A stretch of DNA of 64,000 bases, from assembly GCA_034436195.1 (NCBI GenBank), contig DAOTWS010000176.1, positions 113-64,112 on the forward strand, read 5' to 3'; not shown here. Source of the stretch: Anaerolineae bacterium (GTDB lineage: Bacteria; Chloroflexota; Anaerolineae; Promineifilales; Promineifilaceae). Below, a report on this DNA, generated by a model with database tools, continues.

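Follow-up and report, generated by a model that had tools for sequence, protein, structure and literature searches.

Abundance and spacing of the octamer

The octamer ACGGCCGT, a palindrome with a CGGCCG core and an outer A...T pair, is found 81 times in the 64,000 bases of the window (1.27 per kb), where dinucleotide-preserving shuffles yield 0.96 ± 0.92 copies (maximum 4) and Markov models of order 1, 2 and 3 predict 0.88, 1.61 and 2.34 copies, respectively. The excess is, therefore, 35-fold under the order-3 model and 35-80-fold over the range of models, in DNA with a G+C content of 50.7%. Among all octamers of the window this one has the highest z-score and is followed only by 8-mers that overlap it, the runner-up palindromic octamer having 7 copies, so that the status of extreme outlier, which the earlier note had put forward as a claim open to refutation, is borne out. 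The tally of 81 copies made by hand in that note proved to be accurate, with 80 of the 81 coordinates exact and one shifted by a base (53019, not 53020), and its counts of the longer palindromes were exact as well: 42 copies of AACGGCCGTT (10 nt), 17 of AAACGGCCGTTT (12 nt) and five of GAAACGGCCGTTTC (14 nt). Two perfect palindromes reach 18 nt, one at positions 19556-19573, already recorded in the note, and the other at 53014-53031.

Distances between sites fit an exponential distribution (mean 754 bp, CV 0.98, KS p = 0.54), the nearest neighbouring sites being 31 bp apart, and the under-dispersion seen in 2-kb bins (variance/mean 0.71) is not significant (p = 0.12). Spacing in the window is thus indistinguishable from random, 64 kb being too short to resolve periods of 10-90 kb. 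The window is ordinary chromosomal DNA that codes for two-component regulators, a copper-resistance cluster, panB/C/D/E, GAPDH, glpX, a phosphonate ABC transporter, serA, yidC, murA and an ADP-forming acyl-CoA synthetase, and scanning it for tRNA genes and Rfam families returned none of either.

Structure of the site

Alignment of the 81 sites reveals a soft symmetric extension, rrAA-ACGGCCGT-TTyy, and information content falls to background more than 5 bases to either side; hence, there is no larger repeat unit around the octamer. In agreement with the location described in the earlier note, copies lie on both strands, in the three codon phases and in intergenic DNA: 78 are inside ORFs (38, 27 and 13 by phase, the ORF at 49445-50476 included) and three are intergenic, which places 96% of the copies within genes in a stretch where non-coding DNA amounts to approximately 7-8%.

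The bases of the octamer do not behave alike. Variants at the outer base (TCGGCCGT and ACGGCCGA) are found 27 times in the window vs 2.3 expected, and counts for changes at the six inner positions stay near or under expectation, with a maximum of six vs 3.9. Sorted by its outer bases, NCGGCCGN is present in the window as A..T in 81 cases, as A..A or T..T in 27, as T..A in one and as G..C in none; accordingly, GCGGCCGC, which has G...C flanks, is absent, and GCGGCCGT and ACGGCCGC have four copies between them. The outer pair acts as two independent half-sites in which A is strongly favoured. The core CGGCCG is found 122 times in the window, when 17-30 copies are expected, and this EagI-type hexamer, which had been pointed out in the earlier note, is the invariant part of the word. 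The excess of the core together with the outer-base variants shows that the element is composed of a hard hexamer core and a preferred outer A...T pair. Variants that differ by one C-to-T change are not specifically depleted (observed/expected 0.7-1.6): ATGGCCGT and ACGGCCAT are found six times vs 3.9 expected in the window and 16 vs 12.1 in the pooled loci, and ACGGCTGT and ACAGCCGT six times vs 8.1 expected in the pooled loci.

Pressure on coding sequences

The word is written into almost every place where the genetic code allows it. In the CDSs of the window Thr-Ala-Val is spelled ACG-GCC-GTn in 37 of 38 cases, a choice that codon usage predicts for 7.6% of them (p ~1e-40), and ACGGCCGT is carried by 26 of the 33 [Asn/His/Asp/Tyr]-Gly-Arg peptides (approximately 4.5% expected) and by 13 of the 20 x-Arg-Pro-[FLSYCW] peptides (approximately 1.5% expected). 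The peptides that can hold the word are themselves inflated in the window, Thr-Ala-Val being found 38 times vs 9.3 expected from composition, Asn-Gly-Arg 12 times vs 3.5 and Thr-Ala-Val-Ser 10 times vs 0.5, and across word-bearing genomes Thr-Ala-Val is 4-14 times over-represented. Saturation and inflation are common to all the word-bearing relatives and extend to phages; in one of their loci (L002) Thr-Ala-Val carries the word in 30 of 30 cases and is present 30 times vs 3.2 expected. Neither codon saturation nor peptide inflation was found in the relatives that lack ACGGCCGT. In the alignment of murA, one relative has gained a site via replacement of Ala by Thr.

A genome-wide directional pressure on DNA, therefore, writes the word at almost every synonymous opportunity, and the same pressure fixes amino-acid changes that create it. 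The view that the constraint lies on the DNA and not on any protein, advanced in the earlier note from the three phases and the intergenic sites, is reinforced by this near-saturation of synonymous opportunities. Overall, the observation made in that note is confirmed and its interpretation is supported.

Maintenance and turnover of sites

Two loci from MAGs of relatives, L004 and L005, can be aligned along 20 kb, with an identity of 82%. Sites in these loci are exactly conserved in 35 of 37 and 35 of 42 cases, respectively, vs 26.8% of the other aligned 8-mers (p ~4e-18 and 3e-14), and the local identity of the flanks predicts conservation of 20-23% of the sites. Five of the nine sites that are not shared lie in ungapped alignment, and four of these five differ only at the outer base. 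The same was observed in a pair of phages (L210 and L271), in which eight of eight sites are conserved vs 20% in the control. Existing sites are thus preserved 3-4 times better than the DNA around them. When 102 sites from ten pairs of sequences (69-91% identity) were considered, mismatch frequency was 0.04-0.12 at each position of the octamer and 0.24-0.28 at positions -1 and +8, against a background of 0.195. Protection, therefore, covers the 8 bp of the word and no more, and it extends to the outer A and T. The flanks of the sites are slightly less conserved than the rest of the alignment (77.8% vs 82% overall in L004/L005).

Sites are nevertheless replaced over longer distances: at approximately 70% identity few of them are common to genomes, and murA of the window has no site, though the Gly-Arg-Pro-Leu position that bears it in five relatives is present. 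Sites are long-lived, and individual positions are not essential. In murA, orthologues that have the word and those that lack it can be matched codon by codon, and neither there nor between L004 and L005 does presence or absence of the word involve indels. These indel-free differences, together with the loss of information beyond ±5 bp, show that the word arises and vanishes by point substitution, rather than by mobile insertion.

Words of related lineages

MurA of the window is 81% identical to that of Candidatus Leptovillus affinis and 75-76% identical to those of Candidatus Leptofilum proximum and other MAGs, the lineage of these MAGs being Chloroflexota; Ardenticatenia; Promineifilales; Promineifilaceae. 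In the seven closest MAG loci (L001-L006 and L024) ACGGCCGT is the top octamer, with 1.3-2.7 copies per kb, and the word is present across independent MAGs, Logan assemblies and IMG/VR contigs of many projects. Sister MAGs carry other words: TCGGCCGA is found 11 times vs 0.44 expected in one locus (L010) and four times vs 0.1 in another (L014); CCGGCCGG/CGGCCG 14 times vs 2.8 expected in L009, with the core CGGCCG 27 times vs 2.5 in L013; and TGCCGGCA nine times vs 0.5 expected in L007. The cores CGGCCG and GCCGGC are classic Type II sites (EagI and NaeI/NgoMIV, respectively). No hyper-abundant octamer was found in approximately 50 other Anaerolineae loci, collected via PanC, nor in the remaining MurA loci, and a PanC scan of metagenomes returned no close relative, only sequences with 68% identity or less, none of which carries ACGGCCGT and which serve as a negative control. 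Since the word is present in one clade, is substituted by others in its sisters and has no counterpart farther out, the trait is clade-specific and exists in dialects, most of them with a common core; sister lineages have switched outer bases or core. These hosts also strongly avoid GGNCC.

The word in phages

In IMG/VR, 113 loci matched GAAACGGCCGTTTC, and 39 of them contain the octamer at a density of at least 1 per kb and up to 3.7 per kb. One 30.7-kb contig with genes for portal, head protease, major head and tape-measure proteins bears 57 sites (1.86 per kb) and shows the same codon saturation, with 28 of 32 Thr-Ala-Val peptides carrying the word. Among the other word-rich contigs, some carry integrases and terminases, the integrase-bearing phages having 2.1-3.4 sites per kb, and some contain ParA/Ant/FtsK-like genes; taken together, contigs of tailed or temperate phages have 1.9-3.7 sites per kb. 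Temperate tailed phages that live in these hosts are, therefore, under the same pressure. The 30.7-kb contig is depleted in GGGCCC, CCATGG and CTGCAG, like the host; phages avoid the palindromes that their hosts avoid and yet accumulate ACGGCCGT, which means that this word is not a restriction target. A few viral contigs are instead rich in a sister word, as L377 is in TCGGCCGA (11 copies vs 0.4 expected), and in the scan of viral contigs for sister words, which is dominated by chance matches in GC-rich contigs, L377 and two other viral contigs (L486 and L501) stand out among the matches listed.

Methyltransferase genes

A motif search of the 64-kb window and of approximately 120 kb of chromosomal flanks from relatives found no gene for a methyltransferase, m5C or other, nor for a Vsr-like or a MutH-like protein. 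The same kind of search in 317 kb of word-rich viral loci identified N4/N6 methyltransferases and one m5C fragment, all of them on phages. Three of the word-rich viral contigs carry a PvuII-like N4-cytosine methyltransferase; it has 76 homologues in the databases, and all the contexts examined are phage or prophage. Homologues with 55-85% identity are found in very word-rich DNA (up to 8.9 CGGCCG per kb), although one with 52% identity is not. This enzyme is a candidate, not evidence, and it may equally protect phage DNA against a GGNCC-type restriction system, which is suggested by the strong avoidance of GGNCC in the hosts.

Comparison with HIP1

In cyanobacteria the HIP class is composed of HIP1 (GCGATCGC) and of alternate HIPs (Robinson 1995; Elhai 2015, PMC4390886; Xu 2018, PMC5861425), and the yardstick for the class is a word that is the most over-represented 8-mer, by 15-300 times, at approximately 0.3-2.7 copies per kb. 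ACGGCCGT is, like HIP1, a GC-rich palindromic octamer built on a Type-II-like 6-bp core, in tens-fold excess and at approximately 1-3 copies per kb, which is present in all frames and in non-coding DNA, has soft symmetric extensions, spreads by substitution, has its one-off variants concentrated on the first or last base, is conserved at orthologous sites far beyond background and has derivative words in relatives. The earlier note had written that the element behaves like HIP1, and density, symmetric extension, outer-base variants, spread by substitution and conservation of sites all point the same way. Consequently, ACGGCCGT is, very probably, a HIP-class, substitution-spread element that acts at the level of DNA in Promineifilaceae-like Chloroflexota.

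It is not HIP1 itself, a reading that was rejected because sequence, core and phylum all differ. HIP1 is cyanobacterial and its core, CGATCG, contains GATC, whereas the core here is CGGCCG, without GATC, in Chloroflexota, and CGATCG is not enriched in the window (nine copies vs 12.3 expected). The A...T outer bases are not predicted by the G-methyl-C rule of Elhai; the cognate methyltransferase has been matched in cyanobacteria but none was found here in the window and approximately 120 kb of flanks; periodicity is not detectable in the 64 kb studied here; and ACGGCCGT has been recorded here at high density in temperate tailed phages. Full-text searches of the literature did not find ACGGCCGT described as a genomic repeat, nor any HIP outside cyanobacteria, in line with the statement of the earlier note that no description was known. 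Both the word and the phylum are thus new for the class, and dialects and carriage by phages have been recorded for this element.

What may write and read the word

Several features of the word point to a protein of two-fold symmetry and drifting specificity: its dyad symmetry, the Type-II-like cores CGGCCG and GCCGGC, and the dialects. Such a protein, with a Type-II-like specificity (W-CGGCCG-W), would read the word as duplex DNA. Cyanobacterial genomes with a given HIP variant have been shown to encode a methyltransferase whose specificity matches it, and one-off variants there are outer-base changes (PMC4390886); by this analogy the reader would be a resident, probably orphan, DNA methyltransferase. 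Its methyl mark could bias post-replicative mismatch correction toward the site-bearing strand, and the result would be a ratchet like the one that Elhai proposed for HIP1, in which new sites are preferentially kept and old ones restored. Any DNA that replicates in these cells would be affected, phage DNA at least as strongly as the chromosome, and a repair bias of this kind predicts an equal or higher density in phages. Methylation coupled to biased repair may be the agent and is the likeliest of the explanations considered, although we hold this account tentatively and it has weak points. No gene for such an enzyme was found in the 64-kb window and approximately 120 kb of chromosomal flanks from relatives. 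The G-methyl-C rule of Elhai, which calls for G...C flanks, does not hold here, because the conserved flanks are A...T in these genomes and T...A or C...G in the sisters, with no GCGGCCGC at all; hence, his model can explain the core at best. There is no sign of the spacing control or of the saturation at approximately 1 per kb that the strand-discrimination version predicts, densities reaching 3.7 per kb. Conservation of sites does not discriminate either, since selection on a function of the site would lead to it just as readily (Xu et al., PMC5861425).

The word could instead be a self-DNA signature under direct selection, that is, the recognition site of a host DNA-processing machine that favours DNA bearing it; the word could, for example, regulate a helicase-nuclease, as Chi does, or exempt DNA from a defence or degradation system. 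Each added site would then be of help, chromosome and phages would accumulate them, and the dialects would reflect co-evolution with the reader. Conservation far above the neutral control with a footprint of exactly 8 bp, a relentless and neighbour-independent pressure that comes near saturation with spacings down to 31 bp, the lineage dialects and the viral contigs rich in a sister word (L377) are all consistent with it, and a phage density equal to or above that of the host, despite avoidance of host-avoided palindromes, fits as well as it does under repair. Like Chi, the octamer is short, over-represented and specific to a lineage, it marks resident DNA, and phages can profit from carrying it; however, Chi is asymmetric, co-oriented with replication, few-fold enriched and present at approximately 0.2 per kb in E. 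coli, whereas ACGGCCGT is a palindrome in 35-80-fold excess, found at 1.3-3.7 per kb. No candidate protein was found, and we consider direct selection rather unlikely as the explanation. Another possibility is a DNA uptake sequence, in which competent cells prefer fragments that bear the word and molecular drive spreads it by accumulation of point mutations, as in the DUS of Neisseria and the USS of Pasteurellaceae. The density of those sequences is approximately 0.8-0.9 per kb, to which approximately 1.3 per kb is comparable, and they are likewise mostly genic and have a conserved core with lineage-specific outer bases that resembles the dialects described here. Distorted peptides and less conserved flanks (77.8% vs 82%) have been reported for uptake sequences too (PMC2817400), and recent work on HIP1 points the same way, as it makes natural transformation more efficient in two cyanobacteria and its occurrence is correlated with genes of the uptake machinery (bioRxiv 10.1101/2024.09.10.611283; 10.64898/2026.06.24.733823). 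On the other hand, a competence receptor recognises DUS and USS, which are asymmetric words of 9-12 nt, while ACGGCCGT and its extensions are perfectly palindromic, and there is no bias to intergenic DNA or terminators (three of 81 sites are intergenic in approximately 7-8% of non-coding DNA). The depletion expected in phages, where uptake drive should be weakest, is not observed, their density being equal to or higher than that of the chromosome. The DNA examined contained no competence gene, and we know of no competence or competence machinery in these filamentous Chloroflexota. An uptake sequence is, for these reasons, an improbable reading.

Binding of an architectural protein that organises chromosome domains is less probable still. 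Such a role was suggested for HIP1 by Xu et al. from a periodicity of 10-90 kb, conservation being taken to argue for a structural function (PMC5861425), and the conservation of the word in coding and non-coding DNA and a dyad symmetry suited to a dimeric DNA-binding protein would agree with it; but spacing in the window looks random (on a length too short for the 10-90 kb scale), and near-total synonymous saturation with 2-4 sites per kb in phages exceeds what domain organisation needs. The nearest established precedent for a methyltransferase target raised by biased mismatch correction is Dcm/Vsr, which acts on CCWGG in E. coli. Very-short-patch repair alone, in which an m5C methyltransferase and a T:G endonuclease of the Vsr type over-correct T to C, could be invoked here as the core holds four cytosines in a Type II context, and over-correction of this sort, attributed to Bhagwat and McClelland in 1992, is said to be an established cause of word bias. 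It drives C/T positions only, however, and in E. coli it raises one position by well under 2-fold, whereas the excess of ACGGCCGT is 35-80-fold over eight positions; at most, it could add the few copies expected for the T-variants (2-4 each in the window). As it is quantitatively insufficient, the predicted depletion of C-to-T variants is absent (observed/expected 0.7-1.6) and scanning of the window and chromosomal flanks revealed no Vsr signature, this explanation was rejected as very improbable. The chance that the cause is an ordinary one (codon or dipeptide bias, a mobile repeat of the REP/MITE type, a hairpin or terminator, or an assembly artefact) is negligible. GC-rich palindromes may look abundant because of codon usage, as CGAGCTCG does in Gaiellaceae (21-33 copies per 21 kb), but that octamer, which was considered as a second HIP-like word and discarded, is only 1.4-1.7 times over-represented under the order-3 Markov model that gives 35 times for ACGGCCGT. 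REP, BIME and MITE elements also have many palindromic copies per genome, although they are 20-150 bp long, extragenic and transposed, while the word has 8 bp and is 96% genic. Its presence in three codon phases and in intergenic DNA, the lack of conserved flanks and indels, the position of palindromes of 8-14 nt inside genes with no Rfam match, and its recurrence in independent MAGs, Logan assemblies and IMG/VR contigs led us to reject the codon-bias, REP/MITE, terminator and artefact readings.

Implications

The purpose of HIP1 has been open for approximately 30 years and has been studied in one phylum, and a second, independent system makes comparison possible. The questions that can be asked include which gene families (methyltransferase, repair or uptake) co-occur with a HIP in both phyla, whether dialect switches coincide with changes in one protein, and what becomes of the G-methyl-C model, one specific rule of which, that of the flanks, is already contradicted by this system although the model is the leading mechanistic one. 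The hosts are uncultured but well-assembled Chloroflexota of activated sludge. The word reshapes their proteins, as seen in Thr-Ala-Val, and could bias inference based on alignment or composition in this clade; at the same time, it offers a sharp k-mer marker with which these genomes can be binned and phages matched to their hosts. The phages share both the word and the palindrome avoidance of their host.

It is conceivable, though we regard it as doubtful, that HIPs are a convergent and general way of signing resident DNA, in which the word is read by a DNA-processing system of the host, chromosome and temperate phages alike are driven or selected to bear it, and the dialects follow the reader protein. 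If this were true, the Promineifilaceae system, with ACGGCCGT, TCGGCCGA, CCGGCCGG and TGCCGGCA, would be its first instance in a second phylum, and flanks that break the G-methyl-C rule would force a mechanism other than the one proposed for HIP1.

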